From the IMG/VR virus record IMGVR_UViG_3300013947_000010: a stretch of DNA of 44,515 nucleotides; one strand, 5' to 3'. This DNA comes from a virus. This document shows, in pieces, positions 7,206 through 30,223 of the stretch (position 1 is the stretch's first letter; every line of letters begins with the position of its first letter). The notes under the pieces were generated by a model. It ran no database searches. It worked only from the letters and a program-made list of their open reading frames with translations, and had not been told where the DNA came from. Both the position numbers and the translations under genes were made by a program.

Positions 7206-7313
7206 AAGTAGTAAAAGTAGTTCAAATTCAAGATTTCCGGTAACTTTCACCAGATAGCCGTCCTACTGGCAAAAGTTTACGCAAAAACGGGTTTTCCACT
7301 ACTTTTACTACTT
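7206..7313. repeat. 108-bp near-palindromic element, copy 1 (PAL-1)
   Basis: Begins AAGTAGTAAAAGTAGT and ends ACTACTTTTACTACTT. The central hairpin is CCAGATA-GCCGTCC-TACTGG. It has the same length and layout as 11553..11660 and 30116..30223. Confidence 0.9.
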
Positions 7314-7879
7314 CCCGACTTTGAAATTTGCGCCTGTCGGCACTTCCGAAAGAAAGTAGCTTCACTCATACCCGATTGCTCGATTGCCTGTTTCAACGGC
7401 AAATCTCCGTTCGCCCATGCGGTGGCGGCAACATAAAATTGCTGTGTGAGCGGGAGGGGCTTCCTGCCCTTATACTTGCCCTGCCTTTTGGCAATGGCGA
7501 TACCCTCCGCTTGACGCTCAAGCGTGTTCTCCCGCTCGAACTGATAGATAGCGGCGAACACCGTCATAACAAGCCGTCCCTGCGGCGTGGTCGTGTCGAT
7601 TTTCTCCTTGTCCGAAACAAGCGAGACCTTTTTCTCCCCAAGCAAATGGACTGTGTTGAGCAAATCCTGTGTGCTACGGGAGAGACGGGAAAAGGACTCT
7701 ACATAGAGCGTATCGCCCTCTCGAAGAAACGATAGCATTTCTTGAAACTGAGGTCTGTTGGTGTCCTTACCACTCAGCTTCTCAGAGAAAACCTTTCCCA
7801 CACCAAAGGATTTCATGAGTTCGTCCTGTCTTGCCGGATTTTGTTCCGTGGTGCTTACTCGTACATAACCGACCCTCAT
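7277..7879 (-). CDS. Small serine recombinase (resolvase/invertase family)
   Basis: N-terminus MRVGYVRVSTTEQNPARQ contains the catalytic Ser motif, and there is a C-terminal HTH (GMSEATFFRKCRQ). The last 12 codons lie inside PAL-1. Confidence 0.85.
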   Translation of the reverse strand: MRVGYVRVSTTEQNPARQDELMKSFGVGKVFSEKLSGKDTNRPQFQEMLSFLREGDTLYVESFSRLSRSTQDLLNTVHLLGEKKVSLVSDKEKIDTTTPQGRLVMTVFAAIYQFERENTLERQAEGIAIAKRQGKYKGRKPLPLTQQFYVAATAWANGDLPLKQAIEQSGMSEATFFRKCRQAQISKSGSSKSSGKPVFA

Positions 7880-7892
7880 GTACTCACCTCCA

Positions 7893-8105
7893 TTACTGTT
7901 CTCGCTTCACATAGGTAAACTCAATGTCGTAGCCGAGTGCTTCCATCATCTTCACAAAGGTCTTGTTCACAATACCGTCTTTCTTCTTGATGATACGGTT
8001 GACATACTGACCTGTCGTACCAATGGCTTCACCGAGCTTTTCCTGCGTGGTATTACCCTCAAGGCATTTGACCTTTACATCGAGTTCAAGATTATTGCGT
8101 ACCAT
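7893..8105 (-). CDS. XRE-family HTH transcriptional regulator
   Basis: 70-aa ORF with an HTH (TQEKLGEAIGTTGQYVNRIIK). AAGGAGG lies upstream, and the gene sits 13 nt upstream of the recombinase gene. Confidence 0.75.
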   Translation of the reverse strand: MVRNNLELDVKVKCLEGNTTQEKLGEAIGTTGQYVNRIIKKKDGIVNKTFVKMMEALGYDIEFTYVKREQ

Positions 8106-8133
8106 AGCGTACCTCCTTGATTGTGATGGTTAG

Positions 8134-8162
8134 AGTATAGCACAGGTAAAGAAGAATGTCAA
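8134..8162 (-). promoter_or_regulatory. Sigma-A-type promoter for the HTH-recombinase pair
   Basis: The minus strand reads AGTATTGACA, a 17-nt spacer, then TATACT with a TG extension (TGCTATACT). Confidence 0.6.
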
Positions 8163-8214
8163 TACTATTCGGATAAGAATTTATCTAAAATGAGCCTTTT
8201 TGTATTTTTCGGCT

Positions 8215-8612
8215 ACTCGGCGTACTCCCTGCGCCCTTGGCGGGTGGCGGCTATCCCCCGCCGGGGGTACGCCGTCCCGCCGCTTTTCGGCATGGGGTAC
8301 ACCTCCCGCCGCCGTCCCGCCGTGCTATCAATAAAGCCCCGTTTGCCGTGATAGTGCAATCAAAAGCCCCGCAACGGCTTTATTGATAGTGCATTGTACC
8401 GCTATCAATAGAACATACCCCACGGACAGCGGGAACAGCTTGCAAAAGTAAAGCGGGGGCATATACAACCATACCCCCGCACAACGCACCAGAACGCCCA
8501 GAACGGACGCAACGGCGGCGGGAGTATAGCAACATACCCCGCGCAATAAAAGCCCGTACAACGCCGCCCAGGGCGCAAATAAACCCCCGCCGCAATAGCA
8601 ACGGGGATTTAC
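8215..8612. other. GC-rich non-coding structured block (candidate large ncRNA, origin or recombination site)
   Basis: No ORF here has a ribosome-binding site. About three quarters of 8221..8320 is G+C by hand count. The block contains inverted repeat families (GGGGTAC twice, CATACCCC three times, GCAACGG three times), a stem of at least 14 bp (8325..8338 pairing with 8376..8389), a perfect 13-bp long-range helix (8303..8315 with 8512..8524), and hairpins at 8453..8480 and 8518..8542. Confidence 0.5.
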
Positions 8613-8614
8613 TG

Positions 8615-8683
8615 TCATTTATTCATGTTCAGCAATTCAGCCAACACAACCAACGGAAAAAGCAATATACAAATTACAACCAT
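8615..8683 (-). CDS. Small hydrophobic peptide (22 aa, MVVICILLFPLVVLAELLNMNK), paralog of 6631..6738
   Basis: Below the ORF-track cutoff. GGAGGG lies 6 nt upstream of the ATG. It sits immediately upstream of the GC-rich block. Confidence 0.35.
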   Translation of the reverse strand: MVVICILLFPLVVLAELLNMNK

Positions 8684-8696
8684 GCGCCGCCCTCCA

Positions 8697-8966
8697 TTAT
8701 GCGAATGTAAAGCGGCGGCTTTCCGTTGTCCGCGTATATTTCGCGGCTATTTCGGGCGCGTCCTTTTTTAGTGCTGTCGTATCAATGCGGGAGGAAACAA
8801 CCGCTTTATAGCTTGCCTTGTGTTCCGTTCCCGTCAATGTGTCCGTGTTCCGCTCCTGCATGATTGCTTTTAATTCATCTTTCAGCCCGTCAATAATGGC
8901 GGCTGTTTCCTCCTGCAAACGGGTATATTGTGCAAGCTCCCGCATGATAATATCAATATCTTTCAT
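8697..8966 (-). CDS. Hypothetical protein (coiled-coil N-terminus)
   Basis: The best start is ATG at 8966 (MKDIDIIMRELAQY) with GGAGGAG 8 nt upstream. Confidence 0.5.
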   Translation of the reverse strand: MKDIDIIMRELAQYTRLQEETAAIIDGLKDELKAIMQERNTDTLTGTEHKASYKAVVSSRIDTTALKKDAPEIAAKYTRTTESRRFTFA

Positions 8967-8971
8967 TGTGA

Positions 8972-9169
8972 CTACTCCTCCATTGTGCAAAGAAAATCAT
9001 CATCAGAAAAACAAACCCCGGCATAATGTTCAAAGATAATTTCATCGGGTATTTGTTCGGGGCTTGTAAATGCGCCCTCTAAAATATCTTGCGTTTCGTC
9101 CTGCCAAAAGAAATTATTTTTTAATTCCTCTAATTGTTCCCGTGTCAAATCGTGAATATCTTTAAGCAT
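8972..9169 (-). CDS. Hypothetical small acidic protein
   Basis: 65-aa ORF tightly packed within the island operon. Confidence 0.45.
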   Translation of the reverse strand: MLKDIHDLTREQLEELKNNFFWQDETQDILEGAFTSPEQIPDEIIFEHYAGVCFSDDDFLCTMEE

Positions 9170-9184
9170 TCTTAAGTCCTCCCG

Positions 9185-9532
9185 TTAAAATACCGTGTCA
9201 ACAACTGTTAAAACCGTGACCCACAAATCAATATATTGTGTGCTATACCCGGTATAATCGCCCTTGTCAAATTCCGTTTTACCCGTGATAACATATCCAA
9301 CTTGTTTTGCGCCCCCGTCCGGCGTGTCAACAAACATTTCCGACTTGTTTTTAATGGCGTTTCTGGAAATGCTAATATAGTGTTTTTCTTCTACTCGTTC
9401 CCGGTAAATTTCAAGTGCATTTTCCACGCTATCGGCATTTATGCGCATATCTGAAACAATATCGCCGTTAATATACCATTTTTTATTGTTGTATTCTTTC
9501 ATCGTTGCCGTTGTTTTGAAAATGTAATTCAT
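9185..9532 (-). CDS. Hypothetical protein
   Basis: 115-aa ORF in the island operon, separated from the upstream ORF by a 2-nt gap. Confidence 0.5.
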   Translation of the reverse strand: MNYIFKTTATMKEYNNKKWYINGDIVSDMRINADSVENALEIYRERVEEKHYISISRNAIKNKSEMFVDTPDGGAKQVGYVITGKTEFDKGDYTGYSTQYIDLWVTVLTVVDTVF

Positions 9533-9534
9533 AA

Positions 9535-9792
9535 TTAAACCCCCATTCTAATACATTCATCAAGCGGGATTTTATACCCATGTACCCGGAAAAATGCGCT
9601 GTCTTTCCCGTTGGCGGGGTAATAGATTTTGCAACGGTGGAAACGCCGCGCCGCTTTCCCGCCATACCAACAGCCCGAAACGCAATAAACAAAATCGTCT
9701 ATCCCGTATTCAATACCCTTTATCTCAAGCCCATTCAAGCCGCTGTAATATGCAACGCTTTCCCGGCTTTCGCAATACTCCCGTTTATTCAT
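9535..9792 (-). CDS. Hypothetical Cys-rich protein
   Basis: 85-aa ORF that overlaps the upstream ORF by 8 nt. Confidence 0.5.
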   Translation of the reverse strand: MNKREYCESRESVAYYSGLNGLEIKGIEYGIDDFVYCVSGCWYGGKAARRFHRCKIYYPANGKDSAFFRVHGYKIPLDECIRMGV

Positions 9793-10129
9793 GGCGTGTT
9801 ACCTCCTCAATAAATGCCCGTGCAATCTGTTTAAGCTGTTCCCGCTGTTCCTCCCATGTTACCGAACGATTATAGCGGATTTGTTCGGCTTGCTTTTCGT
9901 ACCGCTCCCGCAATTCATAGGACGGGCGAACATTCCCAAACGGGGCGTAACCCGTCACAATGGCAACCCCGCCGCCCATATCGTAAATATCAGCCGCCCA
10001 GCCCTCCCGGCGTTCGGTGTATGCAACCGGGTTTTCATAATTCAAAAGGTTTTGTAAACCGCAATAGGGAACACAAATAATTGTGTTGTAATTCGCCTTG
10101 ATTGCCTTTTGTGTTGTCTTGAATTTCAT
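9785..10129 (-). CDS. Hypothetical protein
   Basis: 114-aa ORF (MKFKTTQKAIKANYNTIICVPYCGLQNLL). AGGAGG-type ribosome-binding site upstream. Confidence 0.5.
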   Translation of the reverse strand: MKFKTTQKAIKANYNTIICVPYCGLQNLLNYENPVAYTERREGWAADIYDMGGGVAIVTGYAPFGNVRPSYELRERYEKQAEQIRYNRSVTWEEQREQLKQIARAFIEEVTRHE

Positions 10130-10142
10130 TTTCTTTACCTCC

Positions 10143-10487
10143 TCAATAATTCGCGGCGCGTCTTGCGTACATTGCTTTTAGACTTTCGGCGGGGGTCATA
10201 TCTGCGGCCATGCTGTAATGGGGCTTTTCCTCCACCGGGAGCGCGTCCCACCACTTTTTACCACCGCCCGAAATGCCGAACATTTCAATAAATGCGTTAA
10301 CATGGCGCATTGTGGTAACGCTGTACCCGCTCCACATTCGGACAAATTCGCCGCTTTTATCAATCTTGCAAACGATAGTATCATAGGACTGCAAAAGCGT
10401 TTCCCCGTCCTTTTCAATAACCTTTGCTTTCCCGTAAAAGGATTTTGCGCGGTCATAGCCGCCCGGCGTCAATTCGTAAATTTTCAT
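10143..10487 (-). CDS. Hypothetical protein, first gene of the island operon
   Basis: 114-aa ORF with TAGGAGGT 7 nt upstream of the ATG. It is the first gene downstream of promoter 10543..10571. Confidence 0.5.
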   Translation of the reverse strand: MKIYELTPGGYDRAKSFYGKAKVIEKDGETLLQSYDTIVCKIDKSGEFVRMWSGYSVTTMRHVNAFIEMFGISGGGKKWWDALPVEEKPHYSMAADMTPAESLKAMYARRAANY

Positions 10488-10542
10488 GTTGTTTACCTCC
10501 TATAATCTGAAACGGATTGTTTTCTTGTCTCTTGACGATTAT

Positions 10543-10571
10543 ATGTTAGCACAATTCGGATTGCTTGTCAA
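10543..10571 (-). promoter_or_regulatory. Sigma-A-type promoter of the island operon
   Basis: The minus strand reads TTGACA, a 17-nt spacer, then TAACAT with a TG extension (TGCTAACAT). Confidence 0.5.
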
Positions 10572-10786
10572 CCCCTTTTCGATAAATTTTCAATCTTTTT
10601 TGTGTTGGCTGTCCATACATATAATATAGAAAAACAACCCGCCGCAATTTCCCCATGTTCCCGCCGTTTTACTCTATTGCGGTAAAGTGTTAAAGTGATA
10701 CCCGCCAAATCCGCACGATTTTGTGAAAAAATCCGCCCCGAAAACCAAGCTGAAATCTCAGCCCAATTCCCGGAGCGGGTCTGCAT

Positions 10787-10902
10787 AGTCGAAAGTCGCA
10801 AAGTCGATAGTCGAAAGTCGTTAGTCGCTGTCAGAGTCGGAGTCGCTTTGAGAGTCGATAAGATACCGAGCTTTGATAGAGTCGGGGTCAATGTCGGAGT
10901 CG
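10787..10902. repeat. Dense array of 11 AGTCG (CGACT on the minus strand) pentamers spanning the terS stop codon
   Basis: On the plus strand AGTCG starts at 10787, 10794, 10802, 10809, 10816, 10823, 10835, 10841, 10853, 10880 and 10898. Five copies lie beyond the stop codon. Two further AAAAGTCGT copies are at 11438 and 11450, just upstream of the terS ribosome-binding site. Confidence 0.7.
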
Positions 10903-11420
10903 TTGTTCGTGTTGGGTGTGAGAACATACTCCGTCTTGTCTTGATAACGGAAATTGTTCTTACCGAGGAAGATACCCGCAACAGGGTTGACCTTGCCGGA
11001 GTTCATGTAGGTTTCCCATTGATTTTCCATCATAAAGTACGCCTTTTTAATGAAGTCCGTCACATCGGGGCGCAGGTTTGGCATATTTCCACGCCCTCCG
11101 AGGGGTGTATCATTCACAACAGCGTGTAGCCATTGTCTCGAATGTCCATTCAACGCAATAGCCATTCCTGCCACAGTAGGCTTCAAATCAGCTTCCGCAT
11201 AAATCCCGAAATACTCCGAGAGTCGCTGTGCAACTTGTTCAACATCGTCCATGTCAATGTTTTTCAGATTGAGGAGCTTAATGCTTATCCCCGTGATTTT
11301 CGCATTGTCACCCGGCTCAAGGTCAAAGCCGTTCATACCAATCACAGGTGAGTTTCCTCCACGGGGTTTCATCTTTGCTTTCTTAATCACCTGTACTTCA
11401 TCGTTTTTCTTATTTGCCAT
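10821..11420 (-). CDS. terS: Terminase small subunit
   Basis: 199-aa ORF with an HTH-like segment (PTVAGMAIALNGHSRQWL) and a motif typical of small terminases (KVNPVAGIFLGKNNFRYQDK). It is the first gene of the late region. The C-terminus is an acidic SDSDSDSD tail. Confidence 0.75.
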   Translation of the reverse strand: MANKKNDEVQVIKKAKMKPRGGNSPVIGMNGFDLEPGDNAKITGISIKLLNLKNIDMDDVEQVAQRLSEYFGIYAEADLKPTVAGMAIALNGHSRQWLHAVVNDTPLGGRGNMPNLRPDVTDFIKKAYFMMENQWETYMNSGKVNPVAGIFLGKNNFRYQDKTEYVLTPNTNNDSDIDPDSIKARYLIDSQSDSDSDSD

Positions 11421-11552
11421 CGGTTTTACCTCCTAAAAGTCGTTTCAAAAGTCGTGTTCCCATGTCCGTTTTGCCCCGTACAGACCCTTGAAAACAGACT
11501 CCTATGATGTAATAGAGTCCTCTCCCCGGAGAACTTCTTATTCTTAATGGAG

Positions 11553-11660
11553 AAGTAGTAAAAGTAGTGGAAAATCGATTTTTCCGGTAACTTTTGCCAG
11601 ATAGGGGGTCTACTGGAGAACTTATACGCAAAAACTGATTTTGAACTACTTTTACTACTT
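11553..11660. repeat. 108-bp near-palindromic element, copy 2 (PAL-2)
   Basis: The 16-bp arms match those of PAL-1 and PAL-3. The central hairpin is CCAGATA-GGGGGTC-TACTGG. The sequences just inside the arms are inverted relative to PAL-1 and PAL-3. Confidence 0.9.
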
Positions 11661-11749
11661 CACTCCATTTTGAGCAAAAGACAATTTTGCAATCTCATTC
11701 GTATTAAATTCCAAATGTCGTTTTTTATAAGTTTTCAACACGAATAAGA

Positions 11750-11917
11750 TTACTTGCGTATTTTATCGTAAATCTCCTCCAAACTCTCTTTCACGACCAT
11801 AAATTCATCTTCCTCAAAGCAGACTTGTGTACCCTTTTCAGAAGTCGAAATGAGCGTGACGAGGGAGGAGTTTACAAGTACCTGTTGACCTCTCATAGTC
11901 GTTAAAAGAATGAACAT
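11750..11917 (-). CDS. Hypothetical small protein (55 aa)
   Basis: Below the ORF-track cutoff. The ATG directly follows the TAA stop of the upstream ORF (TAAATG). The product is MFILLTTMRGQQVLVNSSLVTLISTSEKGTQVCFEEDEFMVVKESLEEIYDKIRK. Confidence 0.4.
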   Translation of the reverse strand: MFILLTTMRGQQVLVNSSLVTLISTSEKGTQVCFEEDEFMVVKESLEEIYDKIRK

Positions 11918-12133
11918 TTAATCAATAATCCTCCGTATCGTTACAATTTCCAGACAGGCGATTTTGCCCTCCTTTCGGTAGAGTTTCATGTACTCCTTGA
12001 ACGAAAGCCCCATAGCGTCAGCGGCAATGTGGAGGGCTTTCTTCTTTGCCATCGGGAGACAGATAGGGACGCTCTCACCCTTGAGGTGGGCGTACCACCT
12101 GTCCGACCCCCGCACTTTTGAGACGATATACAT
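11918..12133 (-). CDS. Hypothetical protein
   Basis: 71-aa ORF in the packed early operon. Confidence 0.45.
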   Translation of the reverse strand: MYIVSKVRGSDRWYAHLKGESVPICLPMAKKKALHIAADAMGLSFKEYMKLYRKEGKIACLEIVTIRRIID

Positions 12134-12145
12134 TACAAACCCTCC

Positions 12146-12508
12146 TCAATTATCCACATTCAGAATGACACAGGGCTTCCAATATGGGTCGTATTCGGCA
12201 ACTTTTTCTTTCACAAGAGCGTCAAACTCCTCGTCCGTGTAGTCACCATCAGCGAGATTGTTCGCAAGGTCTTCTTCAAACTCGTCCCTGTCGGTGTAGC
12301 ACATACAGTCGTTAACCCTTTGAGCGCAGTCGAGAAATTCTCCCTTGTATGCCTTGATGTAACTGCAACTCATATACGAGTAGTCACCTGTATTTGCGCT
12401 CTCACCCGCAAAGACGAGGAGCGGGAGCGTAGGGTTTTCACGAATAAGCTGTCGGAGTTCATCAGCGGAATGGAGTAGTCCGCTCGGTTTACATTCATTC
12501 GGTGTCAT
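12146..12508 (-). CDS. Hypothetical acidic protein
   Basis: The likely start is ATG at 12508 (MTPNECKPSG). It overlaps the upstream ORF by 14 nt. Confidence 0.45.
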   Translation of the reverse strand: MTPNECKPSGLLHSADELRQLIRENPTLPLLVFAGESANTGDYSYMSCSYIKAYKGEFLDCAQRVNDCMCYTDRDEFEEDLANNLADGDYTDEEFDALVKEKVAEYDPYWKPCVILNVDN

Positions 12509-12821
12509 TTTTCGTATGCGCTCCTTTCTTCTCAGCGGCAAAGATTTCCGGGTTATCCTGTATTACCATGTGAAGCACATTGGCAAGCTCGTCCACTTTC
12601 TTTTCGTCATGCTCGGAATAACCCAAATGGTCGAACATTCCATGAACCATTTCATGAAGCAAGTCGGCTTCCATTTTTGCCTGTGCGTTCGGGCAAATGC
12701 GGATAATCAAATCGGTGTAGGAGATTTCCCCTGTATAGCCTACATTTCCGAGGTCGAGCTTTCGGGTGACTTCTACCTCATAGGTTTTCGCACCGATTTT
12801 TACTTTCTTAGGTATGTTCAT
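12495..12821 (-). CDS. Putative zinc metallopeptidase-like protein (HExxH)
   Basis: 108-aa ORF with the motif LLHEMVHGMFDH. It overlaps the upstream ORF by 4 nt. Confidence 0.45.
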   Translation of the reverse strand: MNIPKKVKIGAKTYEVEVTRKLDLGNVGYTGEISYTDLIIRICPNAQAKMEADLLHEMVHGMFDHLGYSEHDEKKVDELANVLHMVIQDNPEIFAAEKKGAHTKNDTE

Positions 12822-13021
12822 TCTAATTTCTCCTTATCGTCCCTCGCACCCACAAGGGCGGCGAGTTCGTTCATAAATTCATTTGCACGGTCGGTGTCGA
12901 TGAAAGAGCCGTACACCGTACAGGTGTTGCCTTTCTCCACGCAGAGACAGGGCTTCTTTCTGTCGGGAAAACGGTATGCACCGATTTTCACACTCCCGTC
13001 AACAGTCAATACTCTCGGCAT
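12818..13021 (-). CDS. Hypothetical protein
   Basis: The start ATG at 13021 overlaps the primase stop codon (TAATG). The product begins MPRVLTVDGSVKIG. Confidence 0.45.
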   Translation of the reverse strand: MPRVLTVDGSVKIGAYRFPDRKKPCLCVEKGNTCTVYGSFIDTDRANEFMNELAALVGARDDKEKLE

Positions 13022-14511
13022 TACACTACCTCCTTGAGTTTTACACCCCAATAGATAACGAACCCGCTCGAAGTCGATTTCCGTTCAAACCATTCGGGGT
13101 GACGCTCCATTTCAGCGTTGAATTTACGAGCAGAGAGGATAAATGCGCCCTCGGATTTCGCCCACAGCTTGTAGGCGTTATAGAGGTCTTTTGCCTTAAT
13201 ATTGGCTTCCTCAGACTGTACACAGCGACTTTCAAGGAACTGCAATACAAGGTCGTTGTCCCGCTCGTAATTCCGCACAACCTGTGTAAGCTCCTCGCTC
13301 ATGACAAGCCCGTGTTCCTTGTATCGGATATACCCACGGACAAGCCACATAAAGATACCGCTCATTGCTTCCATCGTGGTAAGCTCGTCCTTGAGGTGGG
13401 TGTCCTGCTCCTGCGGGGAGAAATGCCTGTTGAACTCGATAACCTTGATACGCTCGGAAGCGAACAGGCTCTTATCCGTCACGAGCGGTAAGTCATTACA
13501 GGAAAGCCAAAGGGTGAATTGTGGCTTAAAGGTGATAGCACTCTGATAGAGCGCACGGGCAGAAATCTCCTCACCGCCCGTAAGCTGTTTGATTTTCTCC
13601 TCGTCCATTTTGCCGTACTCATTACTCTCGGACATGGTAACAAAGCGTTTGCCCTTGAGTCCGGCCATCGTGGGAGAAGCGGCTTCTGCGTCTTTCTGCC
13701 TGTCACCCTTACAAATCATGCCGACAGGCACGACCTTTGAATAGTCACCGAGCATATACTCAATCGTATTGAGAAGCGTACTCTTGCCGTTACGGGTGGT
13801 TTTGCCATGCAAGATGAACATACACTCCTCATTGCTCATGCCGAGCATGGAGTAACCCAAAGCCCGTTGCAGGAAATCAGCCTTGTCGTGATTATTCTCG
13901 GTGACTTCATCAATGAACTTCTCCCACCGTTCACAGCGAATGTCACGGGAAACGGTATGTCGGAAGTTCGTCTGCATGGTGAGGTAATCGTCCCACCGTG
14001 GCTCACGGAAAGTGAAGTCAGAGAGGTCGTATGTACCGTTCAAGCAGTTAATGAGGTAGGGGTTAGCGTCAAACTGTGCGGCGGCAATTCTCAGTTCGCC
14101 CGTAGCGTCCTTTAAGATACGGTCACGCATACGGCGGTCTCCCATAGAGTTTACGAACTTGGTGTACGCCTTGCGGGTATCATCGTCCGTGATTTCTCCG
14201 CAGTAGAGTATCATCAACCGCACGAAGTCTTTGATTTTCTCGGAAACAAGGATTGCGCCCTCGTCCTTGCGCCACGCTCCCTCATGATAAGTGAACCAGC
14301 TTTTGTGTTCAGCGCAGTAACGGGCTTCCTTGTTGTACAGCACACCAAACAGGTTCGCCATACCCATTTCCGACCACTCGAAGCCGCTGGAAGTCTCGTC
14401 CGCTCTTTCGGGGTGGTAGCTCTTAATCATGTACATTTTGTCGGACAAATCCTCGTCCATGATACATCTGCCATTGCTCAGTTCAAAAAGCTCTCTGTCA
14501 ACACTTGCCAT
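13021..14511 (-). CDS. DNA primase/helicase (D5 / phage-plasmid P4 primase C-terminal type)
   Basis: 496-aa ORF with a P-loop (LHGKTTRNGKSTLLN) and the architecture typical of D5_N plus a P4-type NTPase. Confidence 0.85.
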   Translation of the reverse strand: MASVDRELFELSNGRCIMDEDLSDKMYMIKSYHPERADETSSGFEWSEMGMANLFGVLYNKEARYCAEHKSWFTYHEGAWRKDEGAILVSEKIKDFVRLMILYCGEITDDDTRKAYTKFVNSMGDRRMRDRILKDATGELRIAAAQFDANPYLINCLNGTYDLSDFTFREPRWDDYLTMQTNFRHTVSRDIRCERWEKFIDEVTENNHDKADFLQRALGYSMLGMSNEECMFILHGKTTRNGKSTLLNTIEYMLGDYSKVVPVGMICKGDRQKDAEAASPTMAGLKGKRFVTMSESNEYGKMDEEKIKQLTGGEEISARALYQSAITFKPQFTLWLSCNDLPLVTDKSLFASERIKVIEFNRHFSPQEQDTHLKDELTTMEAMSGIFMWLVRGYIRYKEHGLVMSEELTQVVRNYERDNDLVLQFLESRCVQSEEANIKAKDLYNAYKLWAKSEGAFILSARKFNAEMERHPEWFERKSTSSGFVIYWGVKLKEVV

Positions 14512-14515
14512 TTGC

Positions 14516-14713
14516 TCACCCCACTAAGTCCTTGAGGTGGACAATAATGCCGTCACACTTTTCAAGCCTTTCTCCGTTTTTCTTTAACTCAGCGTCCTCG
14601 AAGATGAACAAGTGTCCCTCATGGTCGGTGGCAAGACCACAGCCGTTTGATACAAGGGTCAGCTTGAGCATTGTCAAAACCCTGTTAATTCGCTGTTTGA
14701 CAACCTTATCCAT
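14516..14713 (-). CDS. Hypothetical protein
   Basis: 65-aa ORF in the packed operon. Confidence 0.4.
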   Translation of the reverse strand: MDKVVKQRINRVLTMLKLTLVSNGCGLATDHEGHLFIFEDAELKKNGERLEKCDGIIVHLKDLVG

Positions 14714-14724
14714 AATGTGTCCTC

Positions 14725-15024: not shown

Positions 15025-15026
15025 GG

Positions 15027-15368
15027 TTATCCCTCCGTAAGTCCGAAAGAGCAACGCAGAGCGGTATCAATACGGCTCATTTCCTCTTTCGTACAATGTC
15101 TAATGAAACTCTGCAACCTGTCCTTTGCGATTGTCTGAACATTTTCGCAGAGGGCAATAGAGGGGACTTTGCAAAGGACAGGTGCGTGAGTGGGAAGATA
15201 CTTCTTGTCTTTCGAGGTGAGGAAAACGACCTCGACATACGGCGAGTGCCGATTTCCTATATTGTTCGAGATAATAACGGCGGGTCTATTTCCGTGAGGT
15301 CTGCTTTCCACTACCGCCTTGCCCTCCCGCACGAACCAAATATCACCTCGGTAATATCGTCTGTTCAT
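15027..15368 (-). CDS. PemK/MazF-family toxin-like endoribonuclease
   Basis: The best start is ATG at 15368 (MNRRYYRGDIWFV). The motifs GDIWFV...NRPAVIISNN...VVFLTSK...PTH match the MazF/PemK fold signature. Confidence 0.7.
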   Translation of the reverse strand: MNRRYYRGDIWFVREGKAVVESRPHGNRPAVIISNNIGNRHSPYVEVVFLTSKDKKYLPTHAPVLCKVPSIALCENVQTIAKDRLQSFIRHCTKEEMSRIDTALRCSFGLTEG

Positions 15369-15388
15369 AGTGTGTTCTCCGTTCCACA

Positions 15389-15405
15389 CGCCCCATAAAG
15401 GGGCG
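15389..15405 (-). promoter_or_regulatory. GC hairpin downstream of VR2 (DGR target-recognition element)
   Basis: The plus strand reads CGCCCC-ATAAA-GGGGCG, the same hairpin as at 34274..34292. It is part of a 44-nt block that is 43/44 identical downstream of both VRs. Confidence 0.8.
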
Positions 15406-15410
15406 CAGAT

Positions 15411-16043
15411 TTAAGATTTAATAGAGAAAGCGGGGCGAACACCGGTGGCGACGGAAGCGGCGCTGTAGGCCGCATAACCAGAGTCGTGGACAGTGGCGAA
15501 ATCGGCGGCTGAGTCATTGGGCGTATTCTGCAACCAGTACCATTCCCAAGTACCCGTGTCCTTGCCTTGGAACGCGATACGGTTTCTAATATCTCCCATG
15601 AGCGGGAGGTATTCGCCGCCGACCTTATCCTCGTAGGGGTTCTTTCCAAAGACCTCCATAGCGGTAAGCAAACGGAGCTTATCGTCCTTATAAACGGGCT
15701 TCATACGAGCCTTGAGGGAGTCGGGGAAAGCGTCAAGGATTTCGCCGTTGAGCTTCTTACGAAGCGCACAGGCTTCATAGCCGCCCCTGTTGGTGCTGTT
15801 ATCGTTCATGGGATATTCGGTCTTGAGACAGTCCACGAACACAAACAGCATACCGTCAGTCTCTTTCCGCATAGCCATAGCGGAAACTTCTTCACCCGTC
15901 TTGAGGGTGAAGTCAATAATGTCACCGACTTCGTATTCATCGGTCTGCACCGTAGTAGAGCGGCGCACGGTCAGTTCCTCGGTCTGAATGTTAAGGAATT
16001 TCTCGAACTCAGCGAGGAGAGTCTTCTTTTCGGTATTAGTCAT
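15411..16043 (-). CDS. DGR target protein 2: stand-alone C-type-lectin-fold / DUF6273-like variable protein
   Basis: 210-aa ORF with no signal peptide or transmembrane segment. The C-terminus (WYWLQN...GVRPAFSIKS) parallels target 1 and contains VR2. Confidence 0.85.
   Translation of the reverse strand: MTNTEKKTLLAEFEKFLNIQTEELTVRRSTTVQTDEYEVGDIIDFTLKTGEEVSAMAMRKETDGMLFVFVDCLKTEYPMNDNSTNRGGYEACALRKKLNGEILDAFPDSLKARMKPVYKDDKLRLLTAMEVFGKNPYEDKVGGEYLPLMGDIRNRIAFQGKDTGTWEWYWLQNTPNDSAADFATVHDSGYAAYSAASVATGVRPAFSIKS
15432..15512 (-). repeat. DGR variable repeat 2 (VR2)
   Basis: The 81-nt alignment to the TR shows 16 differences, all at positions where the TR coding strand has adenine. Confidence 0.9.
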
Positions 16044-16086
16044 GATTTTATCCTCCTAAGATTATTTCTTGTCTTGCTGTGATTAT

Positions 16087-16115: not shown

Positions 16116-16133
16116 TACCTTTCAGATAATTTT

Positions 16134-16763: not shown

Positions 16764-16783
16764 TGGTGTTTTCTCCTTGTAAA

Positions 16784-16984
16784 TTATCGTCTTTTGTGTC
16801 TCTGTGCCTTTCGTACACCTCTGGAGCGTTGCTCATACAGTCCATTACATATAGTGCGTTCGTCACGAATGGCGTTTCTCTCTTTCTCCCATAGCTCCTT
16901 TTCATGTATGTATTCGGGACATACACTATGGCAACCGGGGTAACGCTTTGGGGCAATGCAATCTTTACAGCATTTAATTTTCAC
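16784..16984 (-). CDS. Cys-rich small protein (putative zinc-binding)
   Basis: 66-aa ORF (MKIKCCKDCIAPKRYPGCHSVCPEY). It overlaps the prim-pol stop codon by 4 nt. Confidence 0.45.
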   Translation of the reverse strand: MKIKCCKDCIAPKRYPGCHSVCPEYIHEKELWEKERNAIRDERTICNGLYEQRSRGVRKAQRHKRR

Positions 16985-17769
16985 CGCTTGTACCTCGTCA
17001 CGCTATTACAGATAGTCCGCAATTCATTCCTGTCGAGAGACGGGTCACAGGCTACCGTATTGGCGTACACCAATTCATCGTATATCTGCTGTTTGCTGTA
17101 ACCAAGGTTATGGAGCATACCCGCAAGGGAGGTAAGGCAGATATTACGGCTTCCTGCCGGAATACGGGGGTAGACGGGGCGTAGCTTGATACGGTTATTC
17201 TTCGGTGTCTCCCATACAGGGGAATAGATACGACTACCATAGGCGGCTTGTGCCTTGCCGTCCCGCTGTTCGGGGAAATACTTCTCTACCACATAATCAA
17301 TGGCTTCTTGGTTCTCTACGATATTGCGATAGAGAAGCGTATCTCCCGTCATGATGAAGTACCTTGCCGCCTTGTAAATCTCTACCCCAGCAAGGTTGTT
17401 CTTGCCCTTAAAAGGAAGCGTCCCACGGAGGAGAATATGAAATCCTCGTCCGCTCTTGGATTTTTCGGTATAGCTTTCGCAATGACCGAGAATATCTGCG
17501 GCAAGCTGACTCATAAGCCCGTCCTCGTCATAGCCTGTATCAATGTCGATACCCACAATCCCGTTGTCGTTGAAAACAAACCCGCAGTAATCGTAGTGAC
17601 CATTCTCTACGGCGTTGAGAGCCGTAGAGAAGTCAGACCATGTAGAAGAATTGGTAGAGGAAGCCGCTTCGTTTTCAAAGGCTTTCATGGGGACTTTGCT
17701 ACCGTCACGAGTACAAACCCATTGAGCAAGCGTTTTCAGTTCTTCGGGTATGTTCTCATAATGGTTCAT
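16981..17769 (-). CDS. Bifunctional primase-polymerase (prim-pol) with a PriCT-like C-terminus
   Basis: Contains GIVGIDID (the DxD motif), SGRGFHIL, and a C-terminal RNICLTSLAGMLHNLGYS segment. Confidence 0.7.
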   Translation of the reverse strand: MNHYENIPEELKTLAQWVCTRDGSKVPMKAFENEAASSTNSSTWSDFSTALNAVENGHYDYCGFVFNDNGIVGIDIDTGYDEDGLMSQLAADILGHCESYTEKSKSGRGFHILLRGTLPFKGKNNLAGVEIYKAARYFIMTGDTLLYRNIVENQEAIDYVVEKYFPEQRDGKAQAAYGSRIYSPVWETPKNNRIKLRPVYPRIPAGSRNICLTSLAGMLHNLGYSKQQIYDELVYANTVACDPSLDRNELRTICNSVTRYKR

Positions 17770-18068: not shown

Positions 18069-18072
18069 TACC

Positions 18073-20254: not shown

Positions 20255-20255
20255 C

Positions 20256-24633: not shown

Positions 24634-24634
24634 T

Positions 24635-26038: not shown

Positions 26039-26436
26039 GTTGCAACACCCCGACCCAGCCACTCCTCAAGAGGTTCGGCGTAATCAATGAACCACGCTTC
26101 GGAAAGACGCACTTTATCGGCAAGGTCAAACTGCCAAATCGCCGCCATGTAAATATTCTCGCCAAACTTTACTGCGAACCACCCCGCACCGTTTCCACAA
26201 TCGTCCCACAGCTTCATCGCCATTCGCTGATTGTCCTCAACGCGGGACAGGCTGAACACTTTGCCGGAGCATACCTTACAGTCAATGAGAAACGCCACGC
26301 CGTTTCTCACCGCAATAATATCTGCGGGTTGTCCGCTTTGATTTTGAGCGAGATTATGAACCCAAAACCCCTTTTGGAACAGGAGGTCACAGAACTTGGA
26401 CTCAAAGCTGTTTCCGAGAGATTTATTAGTGTCCAT
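26035..26436 (-). CDS. Holliday-junction-resolvase-like PD-(D/E)xK nuclease (Hjc/RecU-like)
   Basis: The best start is ATG at 26436 (MDTNKSLGNSFE) with GGAGGAA upstream. The motif is PADIIAV...FLIDCK. Confidence 0.55.
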   Translation of the reverse strand: MDTNKSLGNSFESKFCDLLFQKGFWVHNLAQNQSGQPADIIAVRNGVAFLIDCKVCSGKVFSLSRVEDNQRMAMKLWDDCGNGAGWFAVKFGENIYMAAIWQFDLADKVRLSEAWFIDYAEPLEEWLGRGVAT

Positions 26437-26686
26437 ATTCTTCCTCCAATGCGTTGTACTCGTCACGGAGAATTTCAAGCTCATTCTCAAGCTCGGACAC
26501 TCTTTCTTTGAGTGCTTCTACGGTTTCTTCGTCCGTATTTTCCTCATAGGCGGCGAGTTCTTCCAAAAGGCGGTGAATGTATCGCCGAGCTTCCCACCCC
26601 ATGTACTTATCTACAAGTTCTTCAAAGTCATACGGGGTAAAAATTGTTGTGACTTTCTTATCAATCAGCAACAGAACTTCCGGCAT
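26426..26686 (-). CDS. Hypothetical coiled-coil acidic protein
   Basis: 86-aa ORF with GGAGG 9 nt upstream. Confidence 0.5.
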   Translation of the reverse strand: MPEVLLLIDKKVTTIFTPYDFEELVDKYMGWEARRYIHRLLEELAAYEENTDEETVEALKERVSELENELEILRDEYNALEEEYGH

Positions 26687-27323
26687 TTTTCAGCACCTCC
26701 TCGTACTCTTGCATGAGAGCAAGGATTTTGTCGGTGTAGGCGGTAGAGGTAATCCCGCTCTCCCTTGCTTTTGCCGCTCCGTAATCTCCCATGTTGTAAG
26801 CCATCAGAGCCTTAGTGTAATCACCGTCATACGCTCTGAGATAACTGCCGATAATTTTTACGCCACAGAAGATGTTCTGATAAGGGTTAAGCATATCGGC
26901 GGCTCTGTATTTTTCTGCAAGCTGTGTATGATTGACGGCGTTAATCTGTAAAAGCCCGTAGTCATTGGTCTTGCTGACAATTTCGGGATTGAATTGACTT
27001 TCATGCTCGACCATTGCCATAATCAGCGTTACGGGAACTTCTTCATCAGCGCATATCTCATAGACATACCGTTGGAGACTGTGAGAAAGCGGCACATCGA
27101 AGTACACCACTTCGGACATTTCGGGGAGATTGTCTGCTTCGTAAACAGGAACTTCCACCGTCTCGGTGAGCGTTTCTGTTTTAGTGACGGTCTTTGCCTG
27201 TGACTTTCCAACGAGGAAACCAATCAACCCGCCGCCGAGGAACAGCATAAGCAGAACCACCCACGCTTCGGCTCTCACGATTTTGTATCTGTTGATTTTT
27301 CTTTTTCTACACTCAGTAGCCAT
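26661..27323 (-). CDS. Membrane-anchored lytic transglycosylase (SLT domain)
   Basis: N-terminal transmembrane segment (WVVLLMLFLGGGLIGFLVG) and SLT motifs VEHESQF, DYGLLQIN and AYNMG. GAGGAGGAA lies upstream. Confidence 0.8.
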   Translation of the reverse strand: MATECRKRKINRYKIVRAEAWVVLLMLFLGGGLIGFLVGKSQAKTVTKTETLTETVEVPVYEADNLPEMSEVVYFDVPLSHSLQRYVYEICADEEVPVTLIMAMVEHESQFNPEIVSKTNDYGLLQINAVNHTQLAEKYRAADMLNPYQNIFCGVKIIGSYLRAYDGDYTKALMAYNMGDYGAAKARESGITSTAYTDKILALMQEYEEVLKNAGSSVAD

Positions 27324-27430
27324 CTCTGAAATTCCTCCTCATTTTTGGGGTCTTGGTAAAAGGCTTCCAAGATACCCACTAAAGGTCTTGCGAGGTCTGT
27401 TACTTGTTCATCAGTCAGAATGGGACTCAT
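27275..27430 (-). CDS. Hypothetical small protein (51 aa)
   Basis: ATG at 27430 (MSPILTDEQV). There is no clear ribosome-binding site, and the ORF overlaps both neighbours. Confidence 0.3.
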   Translation of the reverse strand: MSPILTDEQVTDLARPLVGILEAFYQDPKNEEEFQRWLLSVEKEKSTDTKS

Positions 27431-27608
27431 GTTCGGCAACAATCTTTTCGCACTCCTCAAGCACCTTTTTAGCTTTGGGGTAGGTGTTAATCCCTCTCAA
27501 AATGCTCGACATTTCAGGGGGCTGAACTACGATACCTCGCACTCGCAGTTCCAAAATCATATCCACCTGTTTCAGACCGAGCTTTTCCATTCTTTCGAGA
27601 ACATTCAT
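27411..27608 (-). CDS. Cro-like small regulator, first gene of the early operon
   Basis: The best start is ATG at 27608 (MNVLERMEKLGLKQVDM) with AAGGAGGAA upstream. The product is 65 aa and the gene is divergent from the repressor gene. The ORF-track start at 27752 has no ribosome-binding site. Confidence 0.55.
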   Translation of the reverse strand: MNVLERMEKLGLKQVDMILELRVRGIVVQPPEMSSILRGINTYPKAKKVLEECEKIVAEHESHSD

Positions 27609-27651
27609 TAGAATTTCCTCCTTTCTGAAATTCTGTTTTCCAGAAATCATC

Positions 27652-27680
27652 TTGACAAAAGGCAGAATTGATGTTATTAT
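27652..27680 (+). promoter_or_regulatory. Plus-strand promoter reading toward the repressor gene
   Basis: TTGACA (27652..27657), a 17-nt spacer, then TATTAT (27675..27680). Confidence 0.55.
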
Positions 27681-27778
27681 TCTTATTGGACTTCTTAATA
27701 ACAACGCCCTGTCAAAACGCCAATTTTGAGAGGGTCGGCTTCTTACTGCCAAATCCGTTTTTCAGATTTCTTGGTCTT

Positions 27779-27807
27779 ATTATAATTCTGATTGGCAGAG
27801 TTGTCAA
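27779..27807 (-). promoter_or_regulatory. Minus-strand consensus promoter reading toward the cro-like gene
   Basis: The minus strand reads TTGACA (27807..27802), a 17-nt spacer, then TATAAT (27784..27779). Confidence 0.6.
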
Positions 27808-27822
27808 GAGGTAAATTCTAAA

Positions 27823-27842
27823 TTTCAGAAATTTTTCTGAAA
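27823..27842. promoter_or_regulatory. Perfect dyad TTTCAGAAA-TT-TTTCTGAAA (candidate operator)
   Basis: A 9-bp perfect inverted repeat abuts the repressor ribosome-binding site. Related copies are TTTCTGAAA at 27622..27630, TTTCCAGAAA at 27637..27646 and TTTCAGA at 27759..27765. Confidence 0.5.
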
Positions 27843-27857
27843 AGGAGGGTATCGACC

Positions 27858-28217
27858 ATGACATTCGAGGAGAATTTGAAGCGTATCTGCAAAGATAGAG
27901 GGACTACTCCGACTGCCATAATGAAGAAATGGGGACTATCCACATCTAAAGTGTCCGCATGGTACAAAGGCTCTTTGCCAAAACAAGAGGTACTTATTCG
28001 CCTTGCCGAAGAATTAAATTGTTCGGTTATGGACTTCTTTGCAGACGAGGAGGACTTGATTGAAAAAGAAATCGTCCCCAACAATGAGGACGAAAAGGAC
28101 ATATTGCGTATCTATCGTTCTCTGCCCCGTAGAGCAAAGCATGAGTTCATGGCAATGGTATATGAATATGAAAACCGCAGAGAATTAGAGGGGGATAATA
28201 CAAGTGCTACGGGTTGA
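27858..28217 (+). CDS. XRE-family (CI-like) repressor
   Basis: 119-aa ORF with an N-terminal HTH (TPTAIMKKWGLSTSKVSAWYKG). AAAGGAGGG lies upstream, and the gene is divergent from the early operon. No S24 peptidase domain is present. Confidence 0.8.
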   Translation: MTFEENLKRICKDRGTTPTAIMKKWGLSTSKVSAWYKGSLPKQEVLIRLAEELNCSVMDFFADEEDLIEKEIVPNNEDEKDILRIYRSLPRRAKHEFMAMVYEYENRRELEGDNTSATG

Positions 28218-28271
28218 GAAGATAATCCCCATAGAACTTCTCAAGCGCAAGCGTATATTGGAGGTGATACT

Positions 28272-29822
28272 ACGAAAGCGGTAATATACGCTCGGTATTC
28301 GAGCCACAGTCAGCGTGAGGAGTCCATAGAGGGACAGCTTCGTGAGTGTCACGACTTCGCCCTCAAAAACGGCTTCACCATCATCAACGAATACATTGAC
28401 CGAGCTTTATCGGGGAAAACAGACAATCGCCCCAGTTTCCAACGACTCATTAAGGACAGCGAAAAACAGCAGTTTGAAGCGGTGATAATGTATACCCTTG
28501 ACCGTTTCGCTCGTAATCGCTATGACTCTGCTATCTACAAAGCAAAGCTCAAAAAGAACGGTGTCCGTATCTTTTACGCCAAGCAACCCATGCCGGATAC
28601 GCCGGAGGGCATTATCCTTGAGTCTGTCCTTGAGGGATATGCGGAATACTACTCCGAAAACCTTTCCCGTAATATCAAGCGTGGTATTCGAGAAAACGCT
28701 TTGAACTGCGTTGCCACAGGCGGGGCAAATCTGCTTCTTGGCTATACTGTTGGGGAAGATAAGAAATATGCCATCGACCCCACGGGTGCAAAGGTCGTTC
28801 AAGAGATTTTCCAAATGTACGCTGACGGCTACTCTGCAACGCAAATCGTCAATTACTGTAATGCACAGGGTTATAAGACGGCACGGGGAAATGCTTTCAA
28901 CAAAAACAGTCTGCGGACAATCCTCAGAAACGATAAATATATCGGCATATACCGCATGATGGATATTGTCGTTCCGGGCGGTATGCCGTCCATAATAGAT
29001 AAAAAGCTGTTCGACAAGGTACAATCCATGCTCAAACACAATGCGTCCGCACGAGCAAGGACAAAGGCGAAAGAAGATTATCTCCTCACGGCAAAGCTCT
29101 TTTGCGGGCATTGCGGCTCACCGATGGTTGGTGAAAGCGGTACTTCCAAAACAGGACAGGTTTATTACTACTACAAGTGCGGGAAAGCCAAGCGAGAACA
29201 CGCCTGTAAAAAGAAAGCGGAAAAGAAAGATTGGATTGAGGAGCTTGTCGTTCGCTTCACGGTTGAAAAGGTGCTGACCGATGAAAACATCAAGAGCATT
29301 GCAAAAAGGGCTATGGAGCTTATCGAAAAAGAGTCAGCCGATACCGCCTACTTGGAGGGGCTACGAGCTGACCTTAAAGAGACACAGAGAAAGATAAAAA
29401 ACCTTGTCTCTGCCATTGAGCAAGGCATTGTGTCTGCTACTACGAAAGAGCGTCTTGACGAGCTGGAACGAGATAAGACCACCATCGAGGGGCAAATCGC
29501 CCGTGAAGAAATGAAAAAGCCGCTCTTGTCTGAGGAGCGCATACGATACTGGCTCACTTCATTCAAGAACGGCGATAGAAAAGACAAAGCGTACCAACGA
29601 AAAATCATTGATACGCTTGTCAATTCCGTATATGTTTACGATGAAGACGATGGGGGCAAACGGATTGTGCTTACATTCAATCTGTCGGGCAATAACACCC
29701 TTATCCTAAAGAGTTCGGATATTGGGTGTTATGCTCCACCATATCGTGCAAATCCGAACACCGTATTTTTCGTGAAACATACATTCGGGTTTGTGCTTAC
29801 ATTGAAGAACGCTGACTTTTAG
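28272..29822 (+). CDS. int: Large serine recombinase (integrase); the start codon is non-canonical or unresolved
   Basis: Contains a resolvase-type N-terminus (KAVIYARYSSHSQREESIEGQ), a recombinase domain, a zinc ribbon (CGHCGSPM...YYKCGK) and a coiled coil. The catalytic Ser codons at 28299..28304 lie upstream of the first canonical start (GTG 28482). GGAGG at 28260..28264 lies 7 nt upstream of ACG 28272. Confidence 0.8.
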   Translation, partial: TKAVIYARYSSHSQREESIEGQLRECHDFALKNGFTIINEYIDRALSGKTDNRPSFQRLIKDSEKQQFEAVIMYTLDRFARNRYDSAIYKAKLKKNGVRIFYAKQPMPDTPEGIILESVLEGYAEYYSENLSRNIKRGIRENALNCVATGGANLLLGYTVGEDKKYAIDPTGAKVVQEIFQMYADGYSATQIVNYCNAQGYKTARGNAFNKNSLRTILRNDKYIGIYRMMDIVVPGGMPSIIDKKLFDKVQSMLKHNASARARTKAKEDYLLTAKLFCGHCGSPMVGESGTSKTGQVYYYYKCGKAKREHACKKKAEKKDWIEELVVRFTVEKVLTDENIKSIAKRAMELIEKESADTAYLEGLRADLKETQRKIKNLVSAIEQGIVSATTKERLDELERDKTTIEGQIAREEMKKPLLSEERIRYWLTSFKNGDRKDKAYQRKIIDTLVNSVYVYDEDDGGKRIVLTFNLSGNNTLILKSSDIGCYAPPYRANPNTVFFVKHTFGFVLTLKNADF

Positions 29823-30085
29823 TTGGCGTTCTTCTTTTTCGGCATTTCATAGGTCATAGCCTGCTTGGAGTCGCTTACACCCTCGGTGGTCGGGTCGGTC
29901 ACAATGCCGAGAATGGCGAGAACCGCAAAGACGGCGTTGACAACCGCAAGCAGTTTGTCACCCATATCACCGAGGTCAATGGTGAAACCAAAGACAGCGG
30001 CTACCACCTGTACCAACAGGAGAACGGCGGGAATAAGAGCCAGCCAAAAATTCTTGTTGCGAATACGAACTTTCCAGTTAATCAT
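29819..30085 (-). CDS. Holin (phage_holin_4_1 / LL-H-like)
   Basis: 88-aa ORF (MINWKVRIRNKNFWLALIPAVLLLVQVV) with two or three hydrophobic helices. TAGGAGGAA lies upstream. It overlaps the convergent integrase gene end by 4 nt. Confidence 0.7.
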   Translation of the reverse strand: MINWKVRIRNKNFWLALIPAVLLLVQVVAAVFGFTIDLGDMGDKLLAVVNAVFAVLAILGIVTDPTTEGVSDSKQAMTYEMPKKKNAN

Positions 30086-30115
30086 GATAATTTCCTCCTA
30101 AAATTTTGATTGTTG

Positions 30116-30223
30116 AAGTAGTAAAAGTAGTTCAATTTCGGTTTTTGCGTAAACTTTCGCCAGTATGCGCGTATCTGGGAGAAGTTTACCGGAAAAACTG
30201 ATTTTCCACTACTTTTACTACTT
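30116..30223. repeat. 108-bp near-palindromic element, copy 3 (PAL-3)
   Basis: It has the same 16-bp arms. The central hairpin is CCAGTA-TGCGCG-TATCTGG. It lies between the endolysin stop codon (3 nt away) and the holin start codon (30 nt away). Confidence 0.9.

Follow-up and report, generated by a model that had tools for sequence, protein, structure and literature searches.

Palindromic 2 + 2 iteron elements as probable replication-origin cassettes in a lineage of temperate gut phages

In Staphylococcus aureus pathogenicity islands (SaPIs), replication depends on Rep, a superfamily 3 (SF3) self-loading helicase that reads iterons of five or six nucleotides through a winged helix at its C-terminus (PMC9371898). 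These iterons sit immediately downstream of rep, and the origin (ori) has an AT-rich centre with at least two iterons per side in opposite directions, on which two Rep hexamers are thought to load, one per side (PMC9371898). A related solution is found in P4 alpha, which unites primase, SF3 helicase and winged-helix origin binding in one protein (PMC2777425). Here we describe a 108-bp near-palindromic element, called E together with its relatives, that occurs three times in the 44,515-nt stretch of the virus record IMGVR_UViG_3300013947_000010 (the whole stretch is referred to as the window). Each copy is probably an iteron-type replication-origin cassette for the P4/SaPI-type helicase encoded by the same phage.

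P4 contains two separated iteron-bearing cis regions, ori and crr, which lie about 4.5 kb apart and share the octamer TGTTCACC. Inverted repeats for an initiator helicase, arranged around an AT-rich or palindromic centre, are also typical of the simian virus 40 (SV40) core origin and of oriL and oriS of herpes simplex virus (HSV), the latter virus having several origin copies.

Layout of E and its syntenic slots

Copies of E in the window are located at 11553..11660 (arms 11553-11568 and 11645-11660, central hairpin 11597-11616), 7206..7313 (arms 7206-7221 and 7298-7313, central hairpin 7250-7269) and 30116..30223 (arms 30116-30131 and 30208-30223, central hairpin 30160-30178). They are treated as unstranded features and occupy what we call slots 1, 2 and 3, respectively. 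The first-pass annotation had described three elements of exactly 108 bp with six identical 16-bp arms, and both points were confirmed: AAGTAGTAAAAGTAGT is found six times in the window with 0 mismatches and nowhere else, even when up to 3 mismatches are allowed. In dinucleotide shuffles, the mean number of matches was 0.32 and 0 of 100 shuffles reached six.

Every arm is built from a pair of AGTAGT hexamers at a spacing of 9 bp, with 2 unconstrained nt between them, and in all three copies the arm pairs are oppositely oriented around an AT-rich centre of about 76 bp. The window copies of E have a GC content of 0.35-0.37 and the mean over all copies is 0.32, versus 0.48 in the genome; the centre contains A/T tracts. 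Of the common layout proposed earlier, size and arms stand, but orientation does not. The slot-3 copy is inverted relative to the other two (its stem on the plus strand reads CCAGTAT...ATCTGG), and the very centres are unlike among the copies (GCCGTCC, GGGGGTC and CGCGCA). Distances to start codons had been given correctly, i.e. 13 nt from the slot-2 copy to the ATG of a DUF5067 lipoprotein gene, 132 nt from the slot-1 copy to the TerS-like gene and 30 nt from the slot-3 copy to the holin gene. The open reading frame (ORF) of a small serine recombinase of the DNA invertase family (7277-7879) reaches 37 nt, about its last 12 codons, into the slot-2 copy and has its stop codon there.

Pattern scans covered IMG/VR, species-representative genomes (185,579) and metagenomes. 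E was detected in at least 27 IMG/VR contigs and in at least 120 metagenomic loci, mostly from human gut. Among the species representatives, the exact-arm pattern occurs in 9 genome contigs, each with phage genes beside it. These contigs belong to Clostridia and related Firmicutes, including Roseburia, Clostridium, Criibacterium and Erysipelotrichaceae; two more matches are low-complexity chance matches. A profile search over the retrieved DNA yielded 296 copies of E, 171 of them unique, and the layout of two plus two inverted AGTAGT hexamers (2 + 2) is present in the 171 unique relatives as well. Length of E ranges from 107 to 113 bp, with a minority of 120 bp that has extra bases at the apex of the central hairpin. 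Searching GenBank phages with the element by blastn gave no match, protein and DNA searches revealed no annotated close relative, and a literature search on the arm sequences found no description. Nor is E described in papers on viral MITEs (miniature transposable elements with inverted repeats) or in those that take small serine recombinases as markers of defence.

Nearly all 296 copies map to four syntenic slots of one phage lineage. Slot 1 lies 50-330 nt upstream of terS. Slot 2 is found beside an Xre gene, with a serine recombinase gene present or not, upstream of one variable cargo gene and terL. Slot 3 is situated between endolysin and holin, and slot 4 between another holin and the terminator of a convergent integrase gene. 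Since E occupies slot 1 in 18 of 19 loci chosen solely by TerS similarity, this is the core slot; slot 2 is at times vacant (L038, L090 and L124). Genomes contain 2-4 copies, with slots 1 and 2 spaced by 3-4.4 kb. Orientation with respect to transcription is mixed, 20 copies being flipped and 14 the same in slot 1, and 38 the same and 5 flipped in slot 2.

Conservation within E was examined in a sample drawn by the inner box TTTTTGCGTAAAC and not by the arms, which makes it unbiased with respect to the latter. Both hexamers of each arm are invariant in this sample and the 2-nt spacer is free to vary; in slot 1 the outermost hexamer is degenerate at times, e.g. GCGTAGT or CAGTAGC. Besides the inner box, the interior of E comprises the central palindrome, which is common to the copies within one genome and differs between genomes (CCAGTA...TATCTGG here, TATA-type elsewhere), which indicates concerted evolution within the genome. 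Because arms of copies in slots 2-4 are conserved at least as well as those in slot 1, the extra copies are under selection.

As a description, the earlier view that the copies mark module junctions is upheld. There are 31 distinct pairs of loci that share one flank together with the half of E next to it but have unrelated sequence on the other side, and in all 31 the similarity ends 0-2 nt from the edge of E. Upstream genes often terminate on stop codons within the arm (AAG TAG or ...AGT TGA/TAA). As the cassette is conserved while its neighbours vary, E constitutes a stretch of shared homology at module borders. That it coincides with mosaic junctions could mean no more than that E is an island of conservation amid variable modules, or else exchange at the copies could be promoted by origin activity.

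Arm sequence and helicase type

In 68 of 68 loci chosen solely by helicase similarity, E is located 370-3060 nt downstream of the gene for a P4-family SF3 primase-helicase and never upstream of it; this does not apply to the extra copies in slots 2-4. In the window this gene lies at 13021..14511 on the minus strand and was assigned by Pfam (D5_N, DUF5906, Pox_D5), TIGR01613 and a fold match. All 94 loci whose helicase is at least 66% identical to that of the window have (A)GTAGT arms, and identity of TerS in these loci spans 40-100%.

The sole TerS-selected locus without E is L338 (identical with L348), and L349 is similar to it. At the spot of slot 1, L348 contains an 88-bp palindrome with AT-rich centre and central hairpin as in E. 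Its arms (GAGCGGTGAGCGGT ... ACCGCTCACCGCTC) are made of the repeat GAGCGGT, and three more such heptamers are found just upstream. Neighbouring proteins of L348/L349 are closely related to those of the window (p209 91%, prim-pol 79%, TerS 66-68% and accessory proteins 75-90% identical). The helicase is only 22% identical, with its DUF5906/Pox_D5 architecture unchanged.

Relatives of the L348 helicase occur together with yet other repeats. In L432 and L433, where the helicase is 73% and 61% identical to that of L348, the repeat is TGAGAGGT, present in at least 17 copies from the helicase stop onward; this array includes a 2 + 2 palindromic unit with TATA-rich centre. L352 (56% identity) has four tandem copies of TGAACAG and a 105-bp 2 + 2 palindrome. 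In these three loci, the repeats begin immediately after the helicase stop codon. Further repeats are TGATACA in L434 (46%), where the 2 + 2 unit was not resolved, TTTACACA in L435 (45%), where it is apparent by eye, and ATGACAT in L436 (51%), where the right arm of slot 1 is degenerate. A clear palindrome of about 90-105 bp with AT-rich centre is present in L348/L349, L352 and L432/L433. Similar helicases are accompanied by similar repeats, as is the case for GAGCGGT and GAGAGGT. Since the second units that L430 and L436 have in slot 2 are of their own genome's repeat type and not AGTAGT, all copies in one genome match its helicase. Judging from these comparisons, seven helicase subtypes pair with seven repeat types at the same locus, and TerS, Xre protein and primase do not co-vary with them. 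It is the helicase that the arm sequence tracks, and neither TerS nor Xre protein nor recombinase.

Each of three helicase types compared with TIGR01613 ("phage/plasmid primase, P4 family, C-terminal domain") surpasses its curated cut-off, the window helicase reaching 217.6 bits versus 108.7. Its AlphaFold model is good from about residue 190 onward. Fold search matched the model to SaPI5 Pri-Rep (7ola; E = 2.8e-14, template modelling score 0.57 normalised by target) and also to D5-type SF3 primase-helicases of African swine fever virus (ASFV), mpox and vaccinia. When the helicase sequence was compared with PDB, weak matches were obtained to ASFV C962R alone, so that the link to SaPIs comes from the fold search. 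The C-terminal 90 residues are modelled as helices followed by a beta-hairpin, with predicted local distance difference test scores (pLDDT) of 73-91, which would suit a winged helix. Within the C-terminal region, conservation is highest at residues 451-475 (96% column identity), and this stretch spans a putative recognition helix at about residues 460-468.

With regard to the systems outlined above, E has every sequence-level feature of the published SaPI ori description. Likeness to SaPIs comprises short iterons, at least two of them inverted on each side of an AT-rich centre, location downstream of the helicase gene, an iteron sequence specific to the Rep type, and an SF3 initiator with C-terminal winged helix, predicted in the case of the window helicase. 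On the other hand, E is confined to a strict near-palindrome of 108 bp whose iterons number no more than 2 + 2, is present in 3-4 copies per genome at module borders whereas a SaPI has a single ori, is not directly beside the helicase gene in the window lineage, and resides in a temperate phage of gut Clostridia, not in a satellite. P4 resembles the window phage in the family of its helicase (TIGR01613) and in the distance between its two cis regions, which is comparable to the 3-4.4 kb between slots 1 and 2, and TGTTCACC-like repeats are present in L352. It differs in that neither ori nor crr is a palindromic 2 + 2 cassette and in having two regions against three or four copies of E, and the primase of the window phage is a separate prim-pol protein. 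As for SV40 and HSV, the likeness is one of layout; sequences and hosts are unrelated and the SV40 pentamers are contiguous. T4-type PeSL mobile regulatory cassettes and conserved "linker" sequences are also short non-coding units at gene or module borders that coincide with mosaic break points; PeSLs, however, consist of promoter and stem-loop, while E is devoid of promoter-like or terminator-like sites and has arms that vary with the type of helicase.

An iteron-type origin module, which the first-pass annotation had missed, best fits the architecture of E, its linkage to the helicase gene, the family of this helicase and the helicase-repeat covariation, and it is from these that we infer binding, melting and origin firing. 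The helicase encoded at 13021-14511 would bind the AGTAGT hexamers via its C-terminal winged-helix domain, and one helicase hexamer would be loaded per side, the two assembling head to head. The AT-rich palindromic centre would then melt, possibly aided by cruciform extrusion, and the neighbouring prim-pol would prime synthesis. By position, the copy at 11553-11660 is the candidate core (primary) origin; the two others, at 7206-7313 and 30116-30223, would be additional sites of this type for binding and loading, whether as auxiliary origins, as crr-like cis elements or enhancers, or for helicase loading alone.

Origin function weighed against other explanations

Several observations weigh against an origin. 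Origins of this type do not usually number three or four in a genome, a SaPI having a single ori, and in the window lineage 0.4-3 kb of small genes separate the helicase gene from the slot-1 copy. As helicase gene and slot 1 are physically close, part of the covariation could reflect block exchange and not recognition. The imperfect-palindrome centre with its inner box is not required by an origin model, and the helicase model is only moderate overall (mean pLDDT 58). Finally, L003 and L124 contain three AGTAGT copies and an SF2 helicase gene but no P4-family helicase in the retrieved DNA. These two would have to rely on a helper phage, and helper dependence, although unproven, fits. L003 (about 200-13500) and L124/L280 (about 200-13000) are elements on 14-16-kb contigs with up to three copies of E. 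They encode integrase, a cI-like gene, the SF2 helicase, terS, the Xre/recombinase/cargo locus and holin, and head or tail genes are missing from them. They may be deletion derivatives, or satellites relying on the helicase and virion of a helper phage.

The long-hairpin folding pointed out in the first-pass annotation is borne out: the three window copies form rod-like structures with free energies of -37.7 to -41.6 kcal/mol (z from -6.8 to -9.4). It is conceivable, though improbable, that this hairpin of about 45-50 bp punctuates a long late transcript at module borders, serving for RNase III-type processing, for stabilisation or for antitermination. The copies are in intergenic, co-transcribed positions, the fold is kept despite apex insertions in the 112-120-bp variants, the symmetric arms would make such an element independent of orientation, and intrinsic terminators in the terS-terL interval render control of read-through plausible. 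The energetics are non-specific, however, since any DNA palindrome would score alike. Of the RNase III proposal, what stands is a long imperfect hairpin in a transcribed spacer; a strand signal is absent, sense and antisense strands folding equally well (mean difference in stability -0.67 kcal/mol, 44 copies versus 42, p = 0.23; 89 unique copies oriented by gene direction). An initial bias in favour of the sense strand (p = 0.006) vanished after the copies had been oriented by true direction of transcription. It is the sequence of the hexamers and not their pairing that is invariant, mismatches in the spacer are common, and RNAalifold gave support for the invariant arms alone, with no covariation. 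No Rfam family matched anywhere in the window at the gathering threshold, and at an E-value threshold the surroundings of the slot-1 copy gave only a chance match to a miRNA precursor (21.8 bits versus a threshold of 99). One slot is situated past the last of the late genes and convergently to the integrase gene, and RNA processing leaves the change of arms with helicase type unexplained. The arms might instead be bound by another phage protein encoded near the helicase, e.g. a small late-gene regulator, with E as operator or transcriptional insulator. In favour of such a regulator, which we regard as unlikely, the exchanged block of L348 also includes three small ORFs, copies are found at borders of transcription units, and around the slot-1 copy there are conserved motifs, both hairpins and repeats. 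Yet in L352, L432 and L433 the repeats follow the helicase stop directly, with no intervening gene, and AGTAGT phages, whose helicase stays 66-100% identical, differ in the small genes that lie between the helicase gene and E. In addition, neither a sigma-70 promoter nor an intrinsic terminator was predicted within E, and reading by eye for consensus revealed no hexamers at workable spacing.

Two specific proteins were considered as arm binders and rejected. If TerS were the binder, E would be a pac or cos-like site; no TerS residue sets the swapped-arm phages L348/L349 apart, and AGTAGT arms persist over 40-100% TerS identity. The Xre protein has an identical recognition helix in the GAGCGGT-arm phage. 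Mobility of E itself had also been suggested. That E is a MITE-like selfish element, an intergenic colonist of the phage lineage with terminal repeats bound by an unknown transposase, is in our opinion quite improbable. Small size, terminal inverted repeats, intergenic position, occurrence in both orientations, presence or absence of the slot-2 copy among relatives and termination of neighbouring genes within the arms would agree with it. Nevertheless, no direct repeat, i.e. no target-site duplication, surrounds any of the three window copies, just as stated previously, and the flanks merely prolong the palindrome by G...C. The element is not dispersed in host chromosomes (the 9 contigs mentioned above), a genome has no more than 2-4 copies, which occupy fixed syntenic slots, a transposase to match was not found, and the arm type is tied to the helicase type. 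Least probable of all is the idea that the copies are res-, hix- or attC-like sites at which the neighbouring serine recombinase brings about inversion, deletion or cassette exchange. Slot 2 does adjoin a serine recombinase gene and slot 4 a large serine integrase gene, the size of E is near that of res sites, and mosaic break points coincide with its edges. The recombinase neighbour, however, may be 70-100% identical, only 25-29% identical or absent while the arms remain constant, and in relatives it may precede or follow E. The arms are direct hexamer repeats and not palindromes for dimer binding, the centres are unlike among copies of one genome, and essential genes would be lost or inverted if copies recombined with one another. 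No flipped interior was seen among 371 same-flank pairs, these being assembled consensus sequences and not reads.

Beyond the origin-cassette reading that we favour, a wider view can be put forward tentatively, namely that E is an origin module complete in itself and portable, of which the lineage maintains three or four working copies, and that origins drive module exchange. Helicase loading or cruciform formation would make the copies preferred break-and-join points. The elements of about 15 kb (L003, L124), which bear cassettes and terS without structural genes or helicase, would exploit them, and the joint swap of helicase and iterons would act as a switch of replication specificity or incompatibility between competing phages and satellites.

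Genome context and implications

Positions 1-77 of the window are identical to 44439-44515. Owing to this 77-bp terminal overlap, the window represents a circularly closed, complete genome of about 44,438 bp, that of a temperate phage. Nearly all genes are on the minus strand, for which reason GC skew gave no information on the origin. In the direction of transcription, tail genes and a diversity-generating retroelement are followed by endolysin (30227-31216), the slot-3 copy and holin (29819-30085), the last convergent with a large serine integrase gene on the plus strand (28482-29822). Then come early genes, Erf/YqaJ recombination genes, a prim-pol type DNA primase of the replication module (16981..17769, minus strand; PHROG DNA primase matches, PriCT_1 in homologues), the helicase, four small genes and the slot-1 copy. 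The first gene downstream of this copy encodes the TerS-like protein of 199 aa (10821..11420, minus strand; PF16677 GP3_package in homologues). About 3 kb of small accessory genes lead to the Xre-type helix-turn-helix protein, always present beside slot 2 (7893..8105, minus strand), the invertase of 200 aa (7277..7879, minus strand), the slot-2 copy, the DUF5067 lipoprotein, TerL (4593-6305) and portal.

The terS-terL interval contains minus-strand intrinsic terminators at 10733-10778 (strong, after terS) and 8453-8480 as well as minus-strand sigma-70-like promoters at 8134-8162 and 10543-10571. These 3 kb look like separate moron-type transcription units. In relatives, a terminator also follows the cargo gene, just ahead of terL. 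Late transcription would have to pass the terminators of the interval by read-through. The single-gene slot between the slot-2 copy and terL (6752-7192 in the window, with equivalents in L018, L121, L136 and L073) has variable cargo of at least four unrelated kinds, i.e. the DUF5067 lipoprotein, two kinds of membrane protein and a cytoplasmic protein of 198-201 aa, and is by its gene content a hypervariable locus beside the small serine recombinase.

Non-coding conserved repeats surround terS at about 11425-11460 and 11665-11790 of the window, and in relatives at 2816-3100 of L352, 12860-12900 of L432 and 4850-4930 of L433. ACGACTTTT occurs twice immediately before the ribosome-binding site of terS, GGATTGAAAAATAATC-type hairpins and AAACGACATTTG are found upstream of slot 1, and in relatives GCGACT(T/A)T arrays directly follow terS. 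These repeats may be pac or regulatory sites.

Other features are located farther from E. The diversity-generating retroelement consists of a template repeat (33604-33727), variable repeats at 34275-34398 and 15389-15512 and a reverse transcriptase gene (32366-33574). The three copies of the 124-nt repeat differ almost solely at plus-strand T (coding-strand A) of the 33604 copy. Variable repeats terminate DUF6273 proteins encoded at 34297-35472 and, remotely, at 15411-16043, and the gene adjoining the template repeat scores 29.4 bits with RVT_1, versus a curated cut-off of 29.6. The longest ORF of the integrase begins at position 68 of the Resolvase profile, so that the gene as called is devoid of the N-terminal catalytic-serine region. 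The same shortening is observed in several relatives, while the gene of L189 is full-length; frameshift, alternative start or an interrupted gene could be the cause. A PemK/MazF-like toxin gene (15027-15389, minus strand) lies within the early region. The ORF of 1466 aa at 38510-42910, taken as the tape-measure gene by its length alone, contains five tandem 72-nt (24-codon) repeats at 39390-39772.

To our knowledge, replication origins of temperate phages of gut Clostridia are essentially unmapped. On present sequence comparisons, E is best filed as a multi-copy, palindromic cassette of the SaPI/P4 iteron type, which would be a new variation on known origins in abundant temperate phages of the gut. 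For a lineage that has thousands of relatives in metagenomes of the human gut, it provides a testable origin motif together with a probable initiator, and the pairs of helicase subtype and repeat type offer a natural specificity series for SF3 self-loading helicases. Helicase-less elements that retain the cassettes hint at a new kind of satellite-helper dependence, and location of the cassettes exactly on mosaic junctions suggests a mechanistic link between initiation of replication and modular exchange. Together with helicase and primase, the cassette could serve as a minimal replicon for the poorly tractable Lachnospiraceae.

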